Below, in pieces: positions 5,621-55,218 of a stretch of DNA of 64,000 nucleotides. Position numbers and translations under genes: made by a program. The notes beneath the pieces were generated by a model that saw nothing but the letters and a program-made list of their open reading frames with translations, did no database searches and was not told the origin of the DNA. How positions within the stretch are numbered: the stretch's first letter is position 1; every line of letters starts with the position of its first letter. Source of the stretch: an uncultured Verrucomicrobiae bacterium (GTDB lineage Bacteria; Chlamydiota; Chlamydiia; Chlamydiales; Rhabdochlamydiaceae); contig CAVSUE010000001.1 of assembly GCA_963731265.1 (NCBI GenBank), forward strand, positions 1,632,001-1,696,000, in the 5' to 3' direction.

Positions 5621-5872
5621 ATACCGCTCCCCCTTGAAAGTTAGGAAAATTTCTGCTTCAGCATCTTTATACACATCGTGACTCAAAAGTTGACCACTGA
5701 CTTCGTCGGCATCCTCATCTTTGCAGCTCGCTGCATCGAGGATGCAAATCTGAAGCGCCGACCTTGCCATTGACTAAGTAAACTTACGGCCGCGTTGTGA
5801 CACGCCCTTTTTGTTCGTTTCCATCGACCATGTGCGCCGACATTGTCTGCTTCAACAACCAAAAAATGACAG
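5620..5872. repeat. Family A element (one end truncated) containing a family B segment at 5669-5781
   Basis: Flanks match the reverse complement of 10354-10539; insert matches 55050-55200. Confidence 0.85.
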
Positions 5873-7848: not shown

Positions 7849-8943
7849 ATGGCTGGACTTTCCTGCGGTATTGTCGGTCTTCCCAATGTGGGCAAATCGA
7901 CCCTTTTCAACGCTCTCACTAAAAAAGCAGCTCAAGCTGCGAATTACCCCTTTTGCACCATCGATCCCAACGTCGGGATCGTCGATGTGCCCGATCTGCG
8001 TCTTCCCGTGCTTTCGAAGATCTCAAAAAGCCAAAAGCTCGTGCCCGCCACCATCACTTTTGTCGATATCGCCGGCCTCGTCAAAGGCGCCTCAGAAGGA
8101 GAAGGGCTCGGCAATCAGTTCTTGGCCAATATCCGCGAAACCGATGCGATTGTGCACGTCGTGCGATGCTTTGAAAACGATGATGTGATCCATGTCGCCG
8201 GCAAAGTGGACCCCATCGCCGATATCGAAGTGATCAACCTTGAGCTTGTCCTAGCGGATTTGCAAATGGCAGAAAACATCGTCAGCCGCCTCGAAAAACA
8301 AATGAAAGGCAAAAAAGAGTTACTTCCAGTTGTTGAAACAATGCGCAAAGCTACCGCGCATCTGAATCAGAATAAACCTCTGCGCACCTTATCCTTAACA
8401 GATGAAGAAAGAGGATTCATCCTCGATTACCCATTCTTGACAGACAAAAAAGTGCTCTATGCCTGCAACGTTTCCGAAATCTCTCTGCCTTCGATGGAAA
8501 ATGAATATGTGCAGAAAGTGCGCGATTATGCCGCTGCGGAGGGAAATCGAGTCATTCCGATTTGCGCCAAGCTGGAAGAAGAAGTAGCGCAGTTCAGCGA
8601 TGAGGAAGCCATCGAATTCCTGAAATCGCTTGGCCTGGAAGAAACAGGGCTGAACCGTTTGATCAAAGCCGCCTATGAGATCCTGGGATTGATTTCTTAT
8701 TTAACCACCGGTGAAATAGAGACCCGCGCCTGGACCATTCGCCGCGGGACCAAAGCTCCCGAGGCCGCAGGCAAAATACACACCGACATCCAAAAAGGAT
8801 TTATCCGTGCTGAGGTCGTCTCTTACAAGGATATGGTCTCTTGCAATGGACGAGCAGGGGCCCGCGACGCCGGCAAATTACGTGCGGAAGGGAAAGATTA
8901 TATTGTACAAGACGGCGACGTCATCGAATTTTTACATAACTAG
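7849..8943 (+). CDS. ychF: Redox-regulated ATPase YchF
   Basis: [40 protein letters not shown]. Confidence 0.97.
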
Positions 8944-9030
8944 TGCCCCGTTTCAAAAATTTTTGAGATAATTTCTAGCGTGAAAGCTCGCTAGAAATTA
9001 TTCCCAAAATTTCTGAAACGGGGCACTAGT
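8939..9030. repeat. Palindromic element family I (long hairpin starting at ychF stop)
   Basis: ACTAGTGCCCCGTTTCA...TGAAACGGGGCACTAGT with inner ATAATTTCTAGCG/CGCTAGAAATTAT stem. Confidence 0.85.
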
Positions 9031-9190
9031 AAGTGAGCTGAAATATTTATAATGAAATTCAAGGAGATTTTCGATGAGATTTTACAGCAGACGACGAAGA
9101 CAATGTGTGAAACACATGGCGAAGGAGGCTGATGTGAAAGATCGCGAAAAGAACTTGAAGTCATTATAAATATTTAAGCGAGCTTACTTA
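9030..9190. repeat. Palindromic element family J
   Basis: TAAGTGAGCTGAAATATTTATAATGA...TCATTATAAATATTTAAGCGAGCTTACTTA; central ATGTGTGAAACACAT hairpin. Confidence 0.8.
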
Positions 9191-9192
9191 AT

Positions 9193-10314
9193 ATGACACA
9201 AACACATTTATTTATCACCTGCGCGGAATATCTCGAGCCCCTTCTTATCGAAGAGCTCAAAAGCCTTGGTCTTACCGATCTGCGGCTTGGCTTTCGCGGT
9301 ATTTATGCACCGAATTCCCAGGAAAACATCTATAAAATCAATTATCTCAGCCGCCTTGCCACACGCGTGCTATTGCCATTAGCGCAATTCCATTGTCCGG
9401 ACCCCGAAACGCTCTATAACGAAGCCAAAAAAATCCCGTGGTTGGACTATCTCGATGAAACAAAGACATTTGCCATTGACGCCAATATTCACCACCCACT
9501 TATCCGCCATTCTTTGTTTGGCGCCCAGCGGGTCAAAGACGCCATCTGTGATGTCATGCGAGAAAGGAAAGGCGTAAGGCCTTCCGTCGACGTCAAAAAT
9601 CCGGACCTTCAACTCAATCTTTTCATCCACAAATCCAAAGCCATCTTGAGCTTGGACACTTCAGGCGCTCCTCTTTATAGAAGAGGTTGGAAAGAGGGCA
9701 ATGTCGAAGCCGGCGTCTCGGAAACTCTCGCTTCAGCCATTTTGATGCGCGCAGGTTATTCCGAGCGGGAAATTCTCTGCGATCCCTTCTGTGGCTCAGG
9801 CACATTCCTCGTCGAAGCCGCCTGCATCGCTACGCTTACTCCCGCGGGTTATTTCCGCAAAAAATGGGGATTTATGCAGTTACCCGGCTTTAAATCTACC
9901 GAATGGGAAGAATTTAAAAACCATTACGACCAAAAAAGACGTTCTATCCCCTCGCAAATGATCATCGGGGCCGACAATGATCCCCATGCGATTCGTTTGT
10001 GCCGTGAACACTTGCATAAAACTGGATTCGAAAAAGAAGTTCTTCTTCTTAACGCTCAGATCTCTAAATTATCTCTTCCCCGTTCGCCAACTCTCCTTGT
10101 CACAGACCCGCCCTTTGGCAAACGGATGGAAGCATTCACACAAATTTACCACGATTTTGGCCAATTCTTAAAGGCCAAATGCCCCGCAGCCCCATGGGCC
10201 CATCTGCTCACTTCCACTTATCATTTGGTCAAAGCGACAGGCTGCACGGTCATGTCGGAATGGCCGCTGAAGCATGGCGGCCTGAATGTCACTCTTTACC
10301 AATTAAAAAATTAA
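9193..10314 (+). CDS. THUMP-domain class I SAM-dependent RNA methyltransferase (RlmL/YpsC-like)
   Basis: SRLATRVL, LDTSGAPLYRRG, DPFCGSGT, DPPFG. Confidence 0.88.
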   Translation: MTQTHLFITCAEYLEPLLIEELKSLGLTDLRLGFRGIYAPNSQENIYKINYLSRLATRVLLPLAQFHCPDPETLYNEAKKIPWLDYLDETKTFAIDANIHHPLIRHSLFGAQRVKDAICDVMRERKGVRPSVDVKNPDLQLNLFIHKSKAILSLDTSGAPLYRRGWKEGNVEAGVSETLASAILMRAGYSEREILCDPFCGSGTFLVEAACIATLTPAGYFRKKWGFMQLPGFKSTEWEEFKNHYDQKRRSIPSQMIIGADNDPHAIRLCREHLHKTGFEKEVLLLNAQISKLSLPRSPTLLVTDPPFGKRMEAFTQIYHDFGQFLKAKCPAAPWAHLLTSTYHLVKATGCTVMSEWPLKHGGLNVTLYQLKN

Positions 10315-10353: not shown

Positions 10354-10539
10354 TATACTGCTGACAGTTGAAAGTTATAGAAAATTTCCATTTCAGCACT
10401 TCAATTTTTTGTTTGTTGAAGAAGACCATGTGCAAGCACATGGTCGATGGAAACGAACAAAAAGGCCGTGGCAAAACCACGGCCGTAAGTGAAGATGCTG
10501 AAGCAGAAATTTTCATAACGTTCAAGTGGAAGCAGTATA
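10354..10539. repeat. Palindromic element family A, full copy
   Basis: TATACTGCTGACAGTTGAAAG...TTCAAGTGGAAGCAGTATA; related copies at 5334 and 5620. Confidence 0.85.
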
Positions 10540-24461: not shown

Positions 24462-25673
24462 ATGATGATGAAGCAATTTTCTCTAGCAACAATTTCATTG
24501 CTCTGCGCAACGATAGCGCCTCTTTGCGCAGACAATGCGGAGAACCTGATTAGCCAATATGAAAGTGGGAACAATGGTTCAAGCCGATCCCAAAGGTCTG
24601 GCATGGACAATCAAAAAAGAAAGTTAGAAGCACAAAAGCAATTCGAGCAAAGATGGCGCGACAATCAGATCACCCCAGTAGTGCCGCTAAAACCGGATGG
24701 ATGGTCCAACCCCTTCATTACAGCGGATTTCATCTATTGGAAAGCCTATTCGGATGGCCTTGCGTATGCCTATGATGGAGTAGCAAATGCTCCTAGTGCT
24801 GTGCCTCCAGATGCGATGTCGGGAACGGTCATGCGTCCCAAATTTGAATGGGAACCTGGCTTCAAACTAGGCCTTGGCAACAAGTTCGCTTATGACGGTT
24901 GGGATCTTTATGCCCAATACACATGGCTTCATGCTGACGCAGACGACGATCAGGAAGAAACAGAGTGCTGCGTCACAGAATGCCGTACAGGTAAGTCCAA
25001 TTACTGGCTGGCGACAAATGCTTGCCCAGAAGCCATCCTCATAAGTTGTGAAGGCGCAAAGTGGAAATTAAACAGCTTCAACGTTCTCGATCTTGAAATG
25101 GGAAGAGATTTTTACATCAGCAAATTCCTGACGATGAGGCCCTTTGGCGGCTTGAAGTTCTCCTGGATGAGACAGAAATATAAAGTCGACTATGATGATG
25201 TCCTATTCGTGGGAGATCAAAGCGGCACTCCATCTTCAAACATTGTCATCCCCATTGGATCTGACGTAAACATGAGTTTTAAGCAAAAACAATTCGGAGT
25301 CGGCCTGCGCGCAGGGATGAATACTGCCTGGTACTTCTGCAAATGGCTAGGCGCTTATGGCGATTTCGCAATGACGGGTCTTTGGAACCATTTCAAAGAA
25401 AAACGTAAGGTCGATGTAGACGCACTTACCGGCTCTTGGAACAGCGAAAACATCAAAGACAAAGTTTATGATGTGACAGCTGTTCTGGAAATCGGGCTCG
25501 GTCTTTTCTTTGACTGGAGATTCAGTAACGATGCCTACATGTTGACATTGGCCGCCGGCTGGGAAACTCAAGTTTGGTTCAATCAGAACAACTTCATCTA
25601 CTTGATGAACAACAATGCCCCTGGAAACCTTTCTTTCCAAGGCTTTACCCTGAAAGCTGGTTTCGCATTCTAA
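24462..25673 (+). CDS. MOMP-like / Lpg1974-family outer membrane porin, paralog 2
   Basis: Colinear paralog of 23113-24318; terminal AGFAF. Confidence 0.82.
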   Translation: MMMKQFSLATISLLCATIAPLCADNAENLISQYESGNNGSSRSQRSGMDNQKRKLEAQKQFEQRWRDNQITPVVPLKPDGWSNPFITADFIYWKAYSDGLAYAYDGVANAPSAVPPDAMSGTVMRPKFEWEPGFKLGLGNKFAYDGWDLYAQYTWLHADADDDQEETECCVTECRTGKSNYWLATNACPEAILISCEGAKWKLNSFNVLDLEMGRDFYISKFLTMRPFGGLKFSWMRQKYKVDYDDVLFVGDQSGTPSSNIVIPIGSDVNMSFKQKQFGVGLRAGMNTAWYFCKWLGAYGDFAMTGLWNHFKEKRKVDVDALTGSWNSENIKDKVYDVTAVLEIGLGLFFDWRFSNDAYMLTLAAGWETQVWFNQNNFIYLMNNNAPGNLSFQGFTLKAGFAF

Positions 25674-25692
25674 TTCTAAGCCCTCTCCTTAG

Positions 25693-25730
25693 AAAAACCG
25701 CTCTTGTTCATTCAAGAGCGGTTTTTTTTT
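25693..25730 (+). terminator. Rho-independent terminator
   Basis: AAAAACCGCTCTTG-loop-CAAGAGCGGT followed by T run. Confidence 0.85.
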
Positions 25731-25780
25731 ATTCCCCCTTAAAAATGCTTTTAGATAAACTCAAGTAAAAGGAGAATTTC

Positions 25781-26350
25781 ATGCGGCTAGTCCCCCGTTT
25801 CAAAAATTTTTGGATTAGTTCCTGCGTCAAAGCCGCTATAATCAACTTGCGAAGCCTGCGGTCTTCGATTCTAGGGAGCTTTCACGCTAGAAATTATCCA
25901 AGAGCGTTCGTACCTTTTGTCCTTGTTGTAACAAGCGTTATCCTGTCCTTTTCCTCACTGCAAGCCCAGATTGTTTTAGACGAGGTCATGTCGAAAGATG
26001 ATCAGAAGAAGACAGGAGTCGCCAACATGAACAAGAATCAGAAAATCGCCTTGGAAGCATGGCTGAATAACAATTTTACCCTTAAAACCGAGCCTGAAGC
26101 CCCCGAGCCCGCACTTTCTCTCTCTATCAACATCGACAACGGCAAAAAAATCCAATTGTCGGATAATTCCATCTGGGAAATTTCTCCCTCCGATTTACCT
26201 GCGTCAGCCCTTTGGCTGACTCCCTTTCCCGTTAAAATCACTCCTAGCGCCGATACTAATTACCCTAGCCTGATCGTCAATCTAAATTCCGGCGTCAGCG
26301 TCAAAGCCCGCTGCATCTCGGCTCCTACATCTTCTTCTGATTATCCGTAA
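25781..26350 (+). CDS. Hypothetical exported protein carrying an in-frame palindromic element in its N-terminus
   Basis: AGGAG SD 6 nt before ATG; hydrophobic AFVPFVLVVTSVILSFSSLQA segment after the repeat-derived peptide. Confidence 0.75.
   Translation: MRLVPRFKNFWISSCVKAAIINLRSLRSSILGSFHARNYPRAFVPFVLVVTSVILSFSSLQAQIVLDEVMSKDDQKKTGVANMNKNQKIALEAWLNNNFTLKTEPEAPEPALSLSINIDNGKKIQLSDNSIWEISPSDLPASALWLTPFPVKITPSADTNYPSLIVNLNSGVSVKARCISAPTSSSDYP
25787..25901. repeat. Family I element inside coding sequence (right TIR lost)
   Basis: CTAGTCCCCCGTTTCAAAAATTTTTG matches 8940; GAGCTTTCACGCTAGAAATTATC is the reverse complement of 8967-8989. Confidence 0.85.
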
Positions 26351-26358
26351 CTCTCTCT

Positions 26359-26387
26359 TTGACATAGCATAAAAAACTAAGTAATAT
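26359..26387 (+). promoter_or_regulatory. Sigma66/70 promoter of clpB
   Basis: TTGACA-17 bp-TAATAT, then AGGAGG SD. Confidence 0.65.
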
Positions 26388-26406
26388 TTAGCTCCCAGGA
26401 GGAATT

Positions 26407-29013
26407 ATGGCTCAGCAATTTACAGAATCTGTCCGCGATGCTTTGGAGAAAGCTTTTAACATTGCGCAAGAACGCAACCATGCCGAAGTGAATGACAATC
26501 ACTTATTGAACGCTTTTTTTGAAGATCCTCATGGCTATTTTTGGACGCTTTCTGCCGCTTTAAATTTAAATGCCGAAAGCTTGATTCCGCAGCTCGAAGC
26601 CGCTTTAAATAGAGTCCCCACTTTCAGCGCGGGGCCGCAGACTCCAGCCATTTCCCCTCAATTGCAAAATCGGATTGCAGAAGCACAGATCATCGCCAAA
26701 AAATGGAATGACGCCTACATCAGCAGCGATCATTTTTTTTATGTCTTTTGGCAATCGGGAAGCGATCCTTTCGCCAGCTGGAAAAAAAGCAGCAATCTGA
26801 ATCTCAAAGAACTTGAAGGCCGCATCAAACAAATGAGAGGGTCGGTACAAATGGATTCGCCCACCGCAGAAGCTAGTCTCCAAGCCTTAGATAAATACTG
26901 CAAAAATCTCACTCACTTGGCGAAAGCAGGAAAACTCGACCCTGTGATTGGAAGAGATGATGAAATCCGCCGTACGATGCAAGTTTTAAGCCGGCGCACT
27001 AAGAACAATCCCCTTTTGATCGGCGAGCCCGGCGTTGGTAAAACAGCGATCGCAGAAGGTCTTGCTCTGCGTATCATCCAAGGCGATGTTCCAGATCCCC
27101 TCAAAGACAAGCAACTTTTCGTCCTCGATATGGGAAGTTTGATTGCAGGGACCAAATATCGGGGGGAGTTCGAAGAGCGGCTTAAAGGGATTCTTAAAGA
27201 GATCGAAAAGAGCGAGGGCAAAATCCTGCTCTTCATCGACGAGGTCCACACACTAGTGGGAGCCGGCGCTACTGAAGGAGCCATGGATGCGGCGAACTTA
27301 TTAAAACCTGCGCTAGCGCGTGGCACGCTGCATTGTATCGGAGCGACAACCCTAAACGAATACAAAAAATACATTGAAAAAGATCCCGCCTTAGAACGCA
27401 GGTTCCAACCCGTGCTCATCGAAGAGCCTTCTTTGGAGGACTCGATAGCCATTCTGCGCGGCCTTCGGGAACGTTATGAGATCTACCACGGCGTGCATAT
27501 TACAGAGAGCGCTCTGCATTCAGCTGTTTACCTCTCGGCAAGATATATCACAGATCGTAGACTTCCAGATAAAGCAATCGATCTGATCGACGAGGCAGCG
27601 AGCATGATCCGCCTCCAGATCGGTAGCGTACCTCTTCCGATTGACATTAAGGAAAGAGAGCTTTCCAGCCTTATCGTCAAACAAGAAGGCTTAAGACGGG
27701 AGGATACTCCGACGTCACACTCCGAAGCGGAAAAAATGCAAGGCCAAATTGCCAAAGCTAAAGAAGAACTCTCCCTGTTCCGTGAAAGATGGAACCAGGA
27801 AAAGAAATTGATCGAGCAGGTTAAAGAAAAGAAAAACAACCTTGAAAACTTGCGTTTCCAAGAAGAAGAGGCGGAACGCGCTGCTGACTATAACAAAGTC
27901 GCCGAATTGCGCTATAGCATCCTCCCTAAGACCAAAAAAGAACTCGAAGAAGCTCAAATCAAACTTCTTAGCCTTCCCAATCGCATGTTGCAAGAAGAAG
28001 TGGATGAACCCCTGATCGCCCAAATCGTCGCCAAATGGACGGGCATTCCGCTCAATCGCATGCTCGAAGGGGAAGCGGAGCGGTTATTGCATTTAGAAAA
28101 AGAGCTCGGAGAACGCGTCGTAGGACAATCTTTTGCCGTACAGGCCGTCAGCCAGGCAATCCGCCGTTCCCGCGCTGGGCTGAACGACCCTTCGCGGCCT
28201 GTCGGCGTCTTTTTGTTCGTTGGCCCCACGGGGGTTGGCAAAACAGAGCTTGTCAAAGCGCTGGCTAATCAGCTCTTCAACCAAGAAGAGGCCATCATCC
28301 GACTCGACATGTCAGAATACATGGAAAAACACAGCGTCGCCAAATTAATCGGCTCGCCTCCAGGCTACGTCGGATACGAAGAAGGGGGACAACTTACTGA
28401 AGCGTTAAGAAGGCGCCCTTATTCTGTTGTCCTTTTCGATGAGATTGAAAAAGCCCATCACGATGTTTTTAATATCCTGCTGCAGATCTTTGACGATGGA
28501 AGGCTAACTGACAGCAAAGGGCGTACGGTCAATTGCAAAAATGCTCTTTTCATCATGACATCGAACCTGGGTTCGGATCTTTTGCTCCACCAGATCCGTT
28601 CGCAGGCGGTTGGATGGACCAAAGAAGAAGTGCTTGTTATCGTTGAGCCCGTTCTAAAGATGCATTTTCGTCCAGAGCTCCTGAATCGACTCGACGAAAT
28701 TCTTCCCTTTCTCCCCTTGCAAAAGAAAGACATGGAAAGGATCGCGTTAATCCAACTGAAACGCGTGGCCGATAGACTCGTAGAGCGGAGCATCAAGCTC
28801 GAATGGGAAAAGCCCATTCTAGCCTATCTTGCCGAGAAAGGCTACGATCCACTGTATGGCGCACGCCCGCTAAAACGACTTATTCAACAAGAAGTTGTCA
28901 ACCTTCTTTCGACAGCAATCCTAAAAGGTGACATCAAAAACAATTTCAACGTGATGCTGACATTGCGCAAAGAAAAAGAAGGCGAAATGATTCAATTCAA
29001 GGCGGCCAAATGA
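26407..29013 (+). CDS. clpB: ATP-dependent chaperone ClpB
   Basis: Two AAA modules ([16 protein letters not shown]), coiled-coil M domain, GARPLKR. Confidence 0.97.
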
Positions 29014-55049: not shown

Positions 55050-55218
55050 TACACATCGTAATCCAAAAATTGGCCACTGGCTTCGTCGGCATCTTCATCT
55101 TTGCAACTGGCTGCATCGGGTATGTGCTTACACATGCCCTGCTTCGCCAACGGCTGCGCCTGCTGCAAATCTAAAGCGCCGACATTGCCTTTGACCAATC
55201 TTTGAATCTCTCTATGTA
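55050..55218. repeat. Palindromic element family B
   Basis: Imperfect TIR TACACATCGTAATCCAAAAATTGGCCA / TGACCAATCTTTGAATCTCTCTATGTA; homolog at 5669-5781. Confidence 0.8.

Follow-up and report, generated by a model that had tools for sequence, protein, structure and literature searches.

In-frame fusions of MITEs with open reading frames are established for RPEs, intragenic ERIC elements, the Yersinia YPAL repeats, Anabaena MITEs and the QMITEs of Coxiella (PMC10969869, PMC2229807, PMC5896051). RPEs are short palindromic mobile elements with one translatable frame, which lie in frame in conserved genes of an intracellular-type bacterium and contribute a peptide to host genes that survive (PMC10969869, PMC2229807). 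The YPAL/RU-2 repeat of Yersinia measures 168 bp (56 codons, a multiple of three), has one open frame and is fused in frame to ORFs. In one of its hosts, YPO1552, described as a putative exported protein, the repeat supplies part of the signal peptide; according to that proposal, a new hypothetical protein acquired its signal peptide from the hydrophobic repeat peptide (PMC2229807). QMITE1 and QMITE2 are MITEs of the intracellular bacterium Coxiella burnetii that encode basic peptides and overlap gene ends, and for the functional genes listed there the overlap is confined to the 3' end, where it affects 1-50 bp of the C-terminal coding sequence (PMC5896051). REP/BIME elements are extragenic units of 20-40 bp with a GTAG or CGTC tag that are mobilised by RAYTs (PMC3733652). 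The text of the MITE review PMC10969869 contains neither 'Chlamyd' nor 'signal peptide', and full-text literature searches, judged from listings and abstracts, returned no report of in-frame, palindromic or MITE elements in Chlamydiae or Parachlamydiaceae. Rickettsia provides the best-known examples of selfish repeats that survive in frame; the cases described here come from chlamydia-like bacteria.

The window analysed here, a stretch of 64,000 nucleotides, belongs to the genome G000 (two contigs, 2.34 Mb, 45.8% G+C). It contains a conserved gene in which a decayed copy of a dispersed palindromic repeat directly follows the second codon (Table 1). The interpretation that we favor, with a probability of roughly 70%, is that a MITE-like repeat inserted behind codon 2 of a gene for a conserved secreted protein, and that its remnant is now read as an over-long n-region which is removed together with the leader. 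The repeat works like an RPE but is not counted as a member of the RPE families: it is short, palindromic and mobile, it has one translatable frame, and it lies in frame in conserved genes that survive. It differs from RPEs in belonging to another phylum, in its length of 178 bp and in its unrelated-looking termini (CTAG...CTAG). Its genic copies are also far fewer (2 of the 26 loci in G000), and the chlamydial cases occupy the extreme N-terminus, mostly a cleaved leader, and once a C-terminus, but not folded domains. The first-pass annotation had spoken of an RPE-like domestication; the likeness to RPEs stands, whereas the data fit a tolerated passenger rather than a domesticated sequence. 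The YPAL repeat resembles the window repeat in adding a multiple of three, in its single open frame and in its fusion to ORFs. Nevertheless, in contrast to YPO1552, the window gene has a basic peptide ahead of a pre-existing conserved signal peptide, in a conserved gene for which insert-free orthologs serve as controls. The Coxiella QMITEs are similar in their host lifestyle, their basic peptides and their overlap with gene ends, but the window repeat hits 5' ends, yet 7 of the 15 longer G000 copies examined, the 8940 copy among them, are separated by no more than 8 nt from the point where a long ORF ends. The family does not fit the REP/BIME description: its unit is 178 bp long, it ends in CTAG and it has copies inside ORFs.

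The terminator-like hairpin, the Shine-Dalgarno site and the ATG that precede the insert occur in the same arrangement upstream of the orthologs whose upstream regions were compared. A search of positions 25600-26050 against Rfam gave 11 sub-threshold matches and none at the gathering score, all of them centred on the terminator hairpin (25690-25735). As proposed in the first-pass annotation, the gene passes from its Shine-Dalgarno site and ATG CGG directly into a palindrome terminus, CTAGTCCCCCGTTTCAAAAATTTTTG, which agrees at 25 of 26 positions with the left-terminus sequence of the copy at 8940-9029, and the inner stem of that palindrome returns later in the gene, in reverse orientation (27/28). 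The palindrome that had been taken as the reference element (given as 8939) does match, but it is a 90-bp deletion derivative of the 178-bp unit. Similarly, the insert is stop-free and in frame as described, while its extent, first put at about 115 bp and 38 residues after the start, is corrected to 25787-25903, with a net gain of 40 residues relative to the insert-free allele P0011.

Table 1. Features of the window gene, its surroundings and the intergenic repeat copy (window coordinates)
Feature	Position	Strand	Basis or remark
Legionella_OMP-type porin gene, upstream context	24462..25673	+	Pfam PF05150, E 1.9e-31
Terminator-like hairpin and T-run 3' of the porin gene	25698..25730	+	read directly from the sequence
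Shine-Dalgarno site AAGGAG, 6 nt 5' of the ATG	25769..25774	+	duplex with 16S tail, -8.9 kcal/mol
Conserved start and codon 2, ATG CGG (MR)	25781..25786	+	orthologs have M-(K/R/Q/H/G/N/V) at the equivalent position; P0011 has MRP
ORF, 189 aa	25781..26350	+	exact product present in public gene calls
Element-derived insert, decayed copy of the 178-bp nested-palindrome repeat	25787..25903	+	alignment to 8 full-length copies, nhmmer, six-frame translations
Left terminus of the element	25787..25812	+	25/26 identical to 8940-8965
Junction of the 39-nt (13-codon) internal deletion, ATC microhomology; central hairpin lost	25841..25846	+	alignment to full copies
In-frame TTG within the element (codon 23), candidate rival start without Shine-Dalgarno site	25847..25849	+	duplex -0.3 kcal/mol
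Inner-stem segment of the element	25870..25897	+	27/28 to the reverse complement of the 8940 copy
GCGTTC, 6 bases between recognisable element and native sequence	25904..25909	+	alignments to the repeat and to P0011
Predicted hydrophobic core of the signal peptide, VPFVLVVTSVILSF; alignment with insert-free P0011 begins here	25910..25951	+	alignment A1; model helix 44-58
Putative c-region SSLQA	25952..25966	+	conserved column pattern in A1
Predicted mature protein (conserved small beta-rich domain) and stop codon	25967..26350	+	orthologs in 30/41 genomes searched
90-bp intergenic copy, termini and inner stem	8940..9029		absent from the equivalent site in G003

The full unit of the family is 178 bp long, palindromic over its whole length and delimited by paired termini, each bounded by CTAG. 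Reduced copies measuring 90, 51-52 and 40 bp retain these ends. A profile of 8 full-length copies (nhmmer) gave 54 strand-hits in G000, corresponding to 26 loci, 12 of which are 169-178 nt long, and the terminus occurs 31 times genome-wide at up to 5 mismatches. When up to 3 mismatches are allowed, a 20-mer of the terminus is found 3 times in the window, where shuffles predict 0.03, and the window gene copy matches the profile over positions 1-60 (E 4.9e-11) and 94-156 (E 4.1e-16); the resemblance between gene and repeat is therefore not due to chance. The element resembles a MITE in several respects. It is short, its termini (CTAGTGCCCCGTTTCAAAAATTTTTG) match their own reverse complement, and the best of its six frames encodes a peptide of only 59 residues, so that it carries no transposase gene. 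Moreover, its copies are dispersed over 26 loci, with empty sites in G003 for the copy at 8940 (which begins right after a TAA in the window) and for a copy in a SprT-like gene, and with the insert-free P0011 as counterpart of the window gene. For the target there is a single clean empty site, at which G003 has CTAA where G000 has CGAG...CTAG; CTAG is kept at both copy ends. On the basis of this single site, the target is probably CTAG/CTAA with a net insertion of 174 bp (58 codons): since the 169-nt copy of the SprT-like gene brings a net 165 nt, a full 178-bp copy at a CTAG-type site would add 174 nt. The right end of the copy in the window gene is deleted and a target duplication is thus not visible there. 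Scarcity of CTAG was considered as a cause of the copy positions and rejected, because the 2520 CTAG sites of the genome amount to 0.78 of the expected number, a mild under-representation only.

Translation of the 8 full copies shows that frame +0 is the sole open one of six: the consensus has a single TGA, located in the right terminus and altered in 4 of the 8 copies, whereas a typical copy has 4-7 stops in each of the other five frames. Both the window gene and the SprT-like gene read the element in frame +0, in the manner of RPE-type insertions. The copy in the window gene lacks 39 nt of the central hairpin as well as the whole right terminus with its TGA (alignment to full copies), and the frame is kept in both deletions. 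The deletion in the window gene copy removed the acidic centre of the element peptide, and the insert peptide is strongly basic (6 Arg/Lys and 1 His, no acidic residue). The RNA between 25760 and 25910 folds at -36.7 kcal/mol (z -0.75), no better than shuffles; the palindrome has been dismantled in the window gene, and a residual stem pairs 25810-25833 with 25878-25901. Five of the seven substitutions relative to the consensus change the residue, so no constraint is visible on the peptide, and since the element consensus is itself open over codons 3-22, their lack of stops does not testify to selection.

Relatives of the window protein occur in 30 of 41 related genomes, with matches that start at query residue ~38-46. 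Nine complete ortholog N-termini consist of M-(K/R/Q/H/G/N)-x, a hydrophobic core and ...LQAQ, ~23 residues in total, and five more of the insert-free type come from named MAGs and metagenome contigs (L002, on a truncated contig, was dropped from this comparison). The gap after MR that the first-pass annotation expected in an ortholog alignment is indeed present: the insert is missing from 14 of the 16 sequences of alignment A1, and the gap falls exactly at the window repeat (L014 and L016, which duplicate L009 and L010, were omitted from A1). With P0011, the insert-free orthologs amount to 15. P0011 (147 aa) is the closest allele (129/143 identical, 90%), starts with MRPVPFVLVV and is the representative under which the 189-aa product clusters in public gene calls. 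Window residue 44 pairs with its residue 4, so that the window protein is longer by a net 40 residues in the interval from Met-Arg to the hydrophobic core; P0011 is known as a protein and the breakpoints of the insert are placed at the protein level. A metagenome scan added 4 orthologs, all without the insert, and no second insert-bearing allele was found in it. In G003, the closest genome examined, contigs end at the window equivalent of 25777 and restart at 25943; broken on both sides of the locus, this assembly offers neither an empty nor a filled site for the window gene. The downstream Met of MSKDDQ, raised in the first-pass annotation as a possible start, was rejected: every ortholog has this Met, as an invariant internal residue that follows the conserved signal peptide.

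Behind the insert, the N-terminus resembles a Sec (type I) signal peptide as judged by eye, namely VPFVLVVTSVILSF followed by SSLQA-Q, with ...LQAQ conserved in the orthologs and a helix predicted at residues 44-58. The n-, h- and c-regions were likewise read by eye in the alignment, and the conserved L-Q-A-Q points to signal peptidase cleavage after A62. These elements suggest the following scenario. A non-autonomous MITE-like repeat, a 178-bp nested palindrome with CTAG ends, would have inserted just behind codon 2 and landed in the single orientation and frame of six that has no stop except the TGA of the right terminus. Two later in-frame deletions would have eliminated the central hairpin and the TGA-bearing right end, and the remnant would amount to 40 extra basic, acid-free residues between Met-Arg and the Sec hydrophobic core. 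Translation most likely continues to begin at the conserved ATG, which has a Shine-Dalgarno site, so that the ribosome would read the remnant as an over-long n-region, after which signal peptidase would remove the insert with the leader behind ...LQA. In that case the insertion would be nearly neutral, because the mature protein is unchanged once the leader is removed. More generally, genic copies may survive only in the open frame and only at places where 40-60 extra residues are harmless, and a cleaved leader would be the place of least harm. The insert is thus best read as a tolerated passenger, although an n-region of 42 residues is unusually long and could slow or block export. The extended signal peptides of autotransporters (ESPR) have long N-terminal extensions before an n-h-c signal peptide and are compatible with Sec. 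The ESPR is a conserved motif with its own signature, whereas the extension in the window gene is a recent repeat remnant absent from orthologs.

Insertions of this kind recur. In G000, a gene for a SprT-like protein of 214 aa (G000:C1:1739263-1739905, minus strand; weak Pfam hits, HEMLH motif) begins with an ATG that shares bases with the stop codon of the GNAT gene upstream, an overlap also present in most orthologs. A 169-nt copy of the element follows its ATG ATT, open in frame +0 and free of stops, before the conserved body of the protein. The G000 protein accordingly reads MI, 55 inserted codons and LESLKNLF, against the empty site MILKSIKNFF in G003; at the DNA level, ATGATT-CTAA-AAAGCATTAAG in G003 faces ATGATT-CGAG...CTAG-AGAGCCTTAAG in G000 (net gain 165 nt, 55 codons). 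None of the 11 orthologous loci examined carries an insert. This copy is an intact hairpin (-93.8 kcal/mol, z -12.35) that begins 4 nt past the start codon. In the sister species G005, the ortholog of the window gene itself starts with MRY, followed by ~60 extra residues and then LGITFILTTLVLSFSQLHAQ (MRY[..]LGITFILTT). The G005 insert is a different, unrelated repeat, with at least 10 full copies in that genome at 88-96% identity, ends TACCC...GGGTA flanked by TA and a core of 184 nt in 6 of 10 copies; together with the TA duplication it adds 186 nt (62 codons), and exactly one of its six frames is open. Two unrelated repeats have hit the same slot of 2-3 codons in the same gene independently in two species. 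The G005 repeat is also found, in the same frame, in the leader of a GspG-like pseudopilin adjoining a T2SS-F gene (MIY, the repeat, then RRKKRTLTLLEIMIVIV), where six orthologs without the repeat have M-x(0-3)-R/K-KKR-x-LTLLE (L057 was left out, as its HSP frame gave no N-terminus), and in the signal peptide of a Legionella_OMP porin (MLNRRTL, the repeat, then FSSFFLWTTAFCQEE). The same three fusions are carried by P0006, P0007 and P0008, public gene calls from other assemblies.

A search of the G000-type peptide against 5.8 billion predicted proteins returned four proteins of 117-375 aa and one longer. The peptide precedes a lipobox-like ...ILCFFLLLSSC in P0001 and AFSFSGC in the LptE protein P0002 (PF04390). 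In P0004 (TPR) it stands between MRFC and ALFTVASLWASPA, and in P0005, which has an inverse-autotransporter domain (IAT_beta, PF11924), between MKKYIISSLGSI and LVLLGCSLHA, while the nucleotidyltransferase P0003 has it at the C-terminus. In P0001, P0002, P0004 and P0005 the peptide thus immediately precedes what reads as a signal-peptide core. These further cases in leader peptides strengthen the earlier idea that a cleavable leader makes the insertion tolerable. In total, 9 of 11 distinct in-frame host genes have a repeat in an N-terminal leader, a count made by eye, with the window gene and its G005 ortholog taken separately, in which hosts are non-independent and gene callers favor long ORFs; the leader bias is therefore a lead and not a statistic.

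The host gene is under purifying selection, with a dN/dS of 0.096 (dS 0.39) between the window gene and G003 over codons 55-186. A public-run contig of a relative ~94% identical covers 25875-26048, from which it follows that this relative has the same truncated right junction; 8 of its 13 listed differences in the ORF are synonymous. Since P0011 is empty and the ~94% relative shares the junction, the insertion is placed after the split from the P0011/G003 lineage and before the last ~6% of nucleotide divergence. In the AlphaFold model of the protein (mean pLDDT 76.5), residues 1-40 score 40-56, residues 44-58 form a helix and a confident small beta domain (112-179) lies above 90. The host protein matched no Pfam family and no PDB structure in Foldseek at E <= 0.001. 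PmrD, its best VIA-align match (Z 5.8, rmsd 3.0, 66 residues aligned), was rejected as a fold relative, as these values lie within the noise range of the tool.

Several other explanations have to be weighed against the passenger interpretation. Translation might now start inside the element, at the TTG at 25847 or another near-cognate codon, in which case the last ~18 element codons would make an n-region of ordinary length, while the codons between ATG 25781 and the TTG would serve as leader RNA or be read only incidentally. The TTG is in frame and would yield MRSLRSSILGSFHARNYPRAF and the hydrophobic core, a typical basic n-region. As stated in the first-pass annotation, the interval that separates the element from the hydrophobic stretch contains no in-frame start, the TTG being within the element itself. 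Many genes of this genome have no Shine-Dalgarno site: an SD-like core precedes the first ATG in 317 of 981 long ORFs (about a third), so that its lack does not exclude a start. Elements of this kind also seem able to donate starts, given that the gene call of P0002 begins at a GTG which belongs to the CTA-GTG terminus of the element, and that the open frame of the G005 element contains an in-frame ATG towards its end. Nevertheless, ATG 25781 retains a strong, well-spaced Shine-Dalgarno site at a position conserved in orthologs: with the 16S rRNA 3' end (GGATCACCTCCTTT, a canonical anti-SD tail), the duplex energies are -8.9 kcal/mol for this ATG, -0.3 for the TTG and -5.3 for the internal ATG at 25988. 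Ribosomes loading at ATG 25781 would read through in frame anyway, and the deletion upstream of the TTG has a length divisible by three (39 nt), though this happens by chance in one case out of three. For the SprT-like gene, most of the orthologs seen have start and upstream stop overlapping as ATGA, which suggests that the old start is still used. The conserved ATG 25781 is the better start candidate, a start within the element is unlikely, and the Shine-Dalgarno site, the frame and the stop-free reading together suggest that the insert is translated.

The insertion could also have crippled its host gene, the protein being no longer exported or no longer made and the ORF being a young, undecayed pseudogene. 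An n-region of 42 residues is far beyond the 2-3 residues of the orthologs, and no RNA run was listed for positions 25300-26700, but the ORF is intact, both element deletions keep the frame and remove the TGA, and the low dN/dS relative to G003, together with the mostly synonymous differences from the relative that shares the insert, makes this very improbable. True domestication, in which the basic extension would slow or regulate export or alter the targeting route, or in which the residual stem would tune translation, is likewise improbable. The insert has persisted through ~6% nucleotide divergence, it is basic and free of acidic residues after the loss of the acidic centre, and leader insertions recur in several genes and species. 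Yet 15 orthologs, one of them 90% identical, manage without it, its RNA folds no better than shuffles, its substitutions are mostly non-synonymous, and tolerance explains the recurrence equally well. Finally, a repeat-induced misjoin could have put a piece of the element into the gene during assembly, and the G003 assembly is broken on both sides of the locus. However, a 173-nt public-run contig bridges the left junction (25690-25862) with 0 mismatches, although its source sample is possibly the same, and the right junction is covered by the contig of the ~94% relative; among short contigs from four public runs, none spans the whole insert. The copy in the window gene moreover carries private deletions and substitutions, and analogous in-frame copies occur in independent assemblies (P0006, P0007 and P0008), so that an artefact has a next to negligible probability. 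The passenger interpretation is thus retained.

The most interesting aspect of these data is the recurrent use of leader peptides, one gene even having been hit independently at one and the same place by two unrelated repeats. A broader hypothesis, which we regard as tentative and somewhat doubtful, is that the codons between the start and the hydrophobic core of a cleavable leader (Sec, lipoprotein or prepilin) offer frame-neutral MITEs a favored safe harbour, or even attract their integration as a hot spot, in these environmental chlamydiae, the elements being shaped as a disposable leader and occasionally donating start codons. If the leader bias holds true in a census, it would represent a specific route by which compact genomes poor in intergenic space accommodate mobile DNA. 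The cases that have clean insert-free orthologs constitute a natural experiment on how much extra sequence an n-region tolerates. They also matter for annotation, as start-codon calls, signal-peptide predictions and ortholog clustering will be misled by such extensions.

Regarding the origin of the two families, duplications of 4 bp (YTAR) are typical of IS5 and TA duplications are typical of IS630/mariner elements. The G000 family, with its CTAG bounds and CTAA empty site, may therefore be of the IS5 type, and the G005 family (TACCC...GGGTA, TA) may be a MITE of the IS630/mariner type. No autonomous parent with matching ends was found in G000: no transposase ORF lies beside the solo termini at C1:1542833, 233126 and 490405, and the end of a transposase-like ORF that abuts a repeat copy in locus L018 has no counterpart in G000 (tblastn). 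Both of these unrelated families add a multiple of three nucleotides (probably 174, and 186), and each has one open frame, which encodes a basic peptide.

The G000-type repeat, a 178-bp MITE-like nested palindrome with CTAG ends, is carried in frame by an SprT-like gene of the source genome (G000) as an intact copy, for which a hairpin of -93.8 kcal/mol is predicted, with its onset 4 nt past the start codon; this start codon itself overlaps the upstream stop (ATGA). Related copies in other MAGs and metagenome contigs (L017, L018 and L070; see table) are all in the same reading frame. The database protein P0002 (LptE family) is called from a GTG that belongs to the CTA-GTG terminus of the element itself, so the element may supply start codons to genes. 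The corresponding codon of the window gene reads GTC.

The assembly of the closest genome, G003, is broken on both sides of the window gene locus, at window-equivalent positions 25777 and 25943. A near-identical, insert-free product of 147 aa (P0011) is recorded from a contig of 35.5 kb. Together, the breaks and the insert-free allele may reflect a presence/absence polymorphism in that population.

Among the 15 longer copies in G000, seven have the 3' terminus of a long ORF at most 8 nt away, and the copy at 8940 in the window begins directly after a TAA stop. Two scenarios could explain this placement: a target preference for YTAR sites, which resemble stop codons, or alternatively selection for positions in 3'-UTRs.

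The sister species G005 bears a 184-bp repeat of its own (G005-type). Its inner part (approximately positions 30-163) gave 53 nhmmer hits in G000, where the ends are different; from their sequence, these matches would constitute a third repeat family of that genome. One copy in G005 (at L049) overlaps the final codons of a 403-aa ORF and provides its stop codon (...GGGYHSIPK*). Read by eye, this ORF looks outer-membrane-efflux-like.

Coordinates of repeat copies, repeat matches and contig ends
Feature	Position	Strand	Remark
Intact 169-nt G000-type copy	L026:1731-1899 (G000:C1:1739730-1739898)	minus	in frame after codon 2, SprT-like gene
Related G000-type copy	L017:257-499		C-terminal extension of an ORF
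Related G000-type copy	L018:117-275		adjoins end of transposase-like ORF
Related G000-type copy	L070:1201-1353		four codons past an ATG
G003 contig ends at window gene locus	G003:C187:1 and G003:C178:1		loci L071, L002
G005-type inner-part match	window 5798-5868 (G000:C1:1637798)		nhmmer
G005-type inner-part match	window 10385-10506 (G000:C1:1642385)		nhmmer
G005-type inner-part match	window 55064-55207 (G000:C1:1687064)		nhmmer
184-bp repeat copy	L049:1196-1423 (G005:C1:1587195-1587422)		403-aa ORF

A different inverted-repeat element (window 9028-9196) adjoins the 8940 palindrome, and the intergenic site of G003 lacks both. This second element has 10 matches within G000, and its counterparts in G002-G005 are 88-93% identical to it, whereas the coding DNA that flanks it shows only 76-81% identity to these genomes (95% to G003). 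It contains an AAGGAG motif and a 31-codon ORF.
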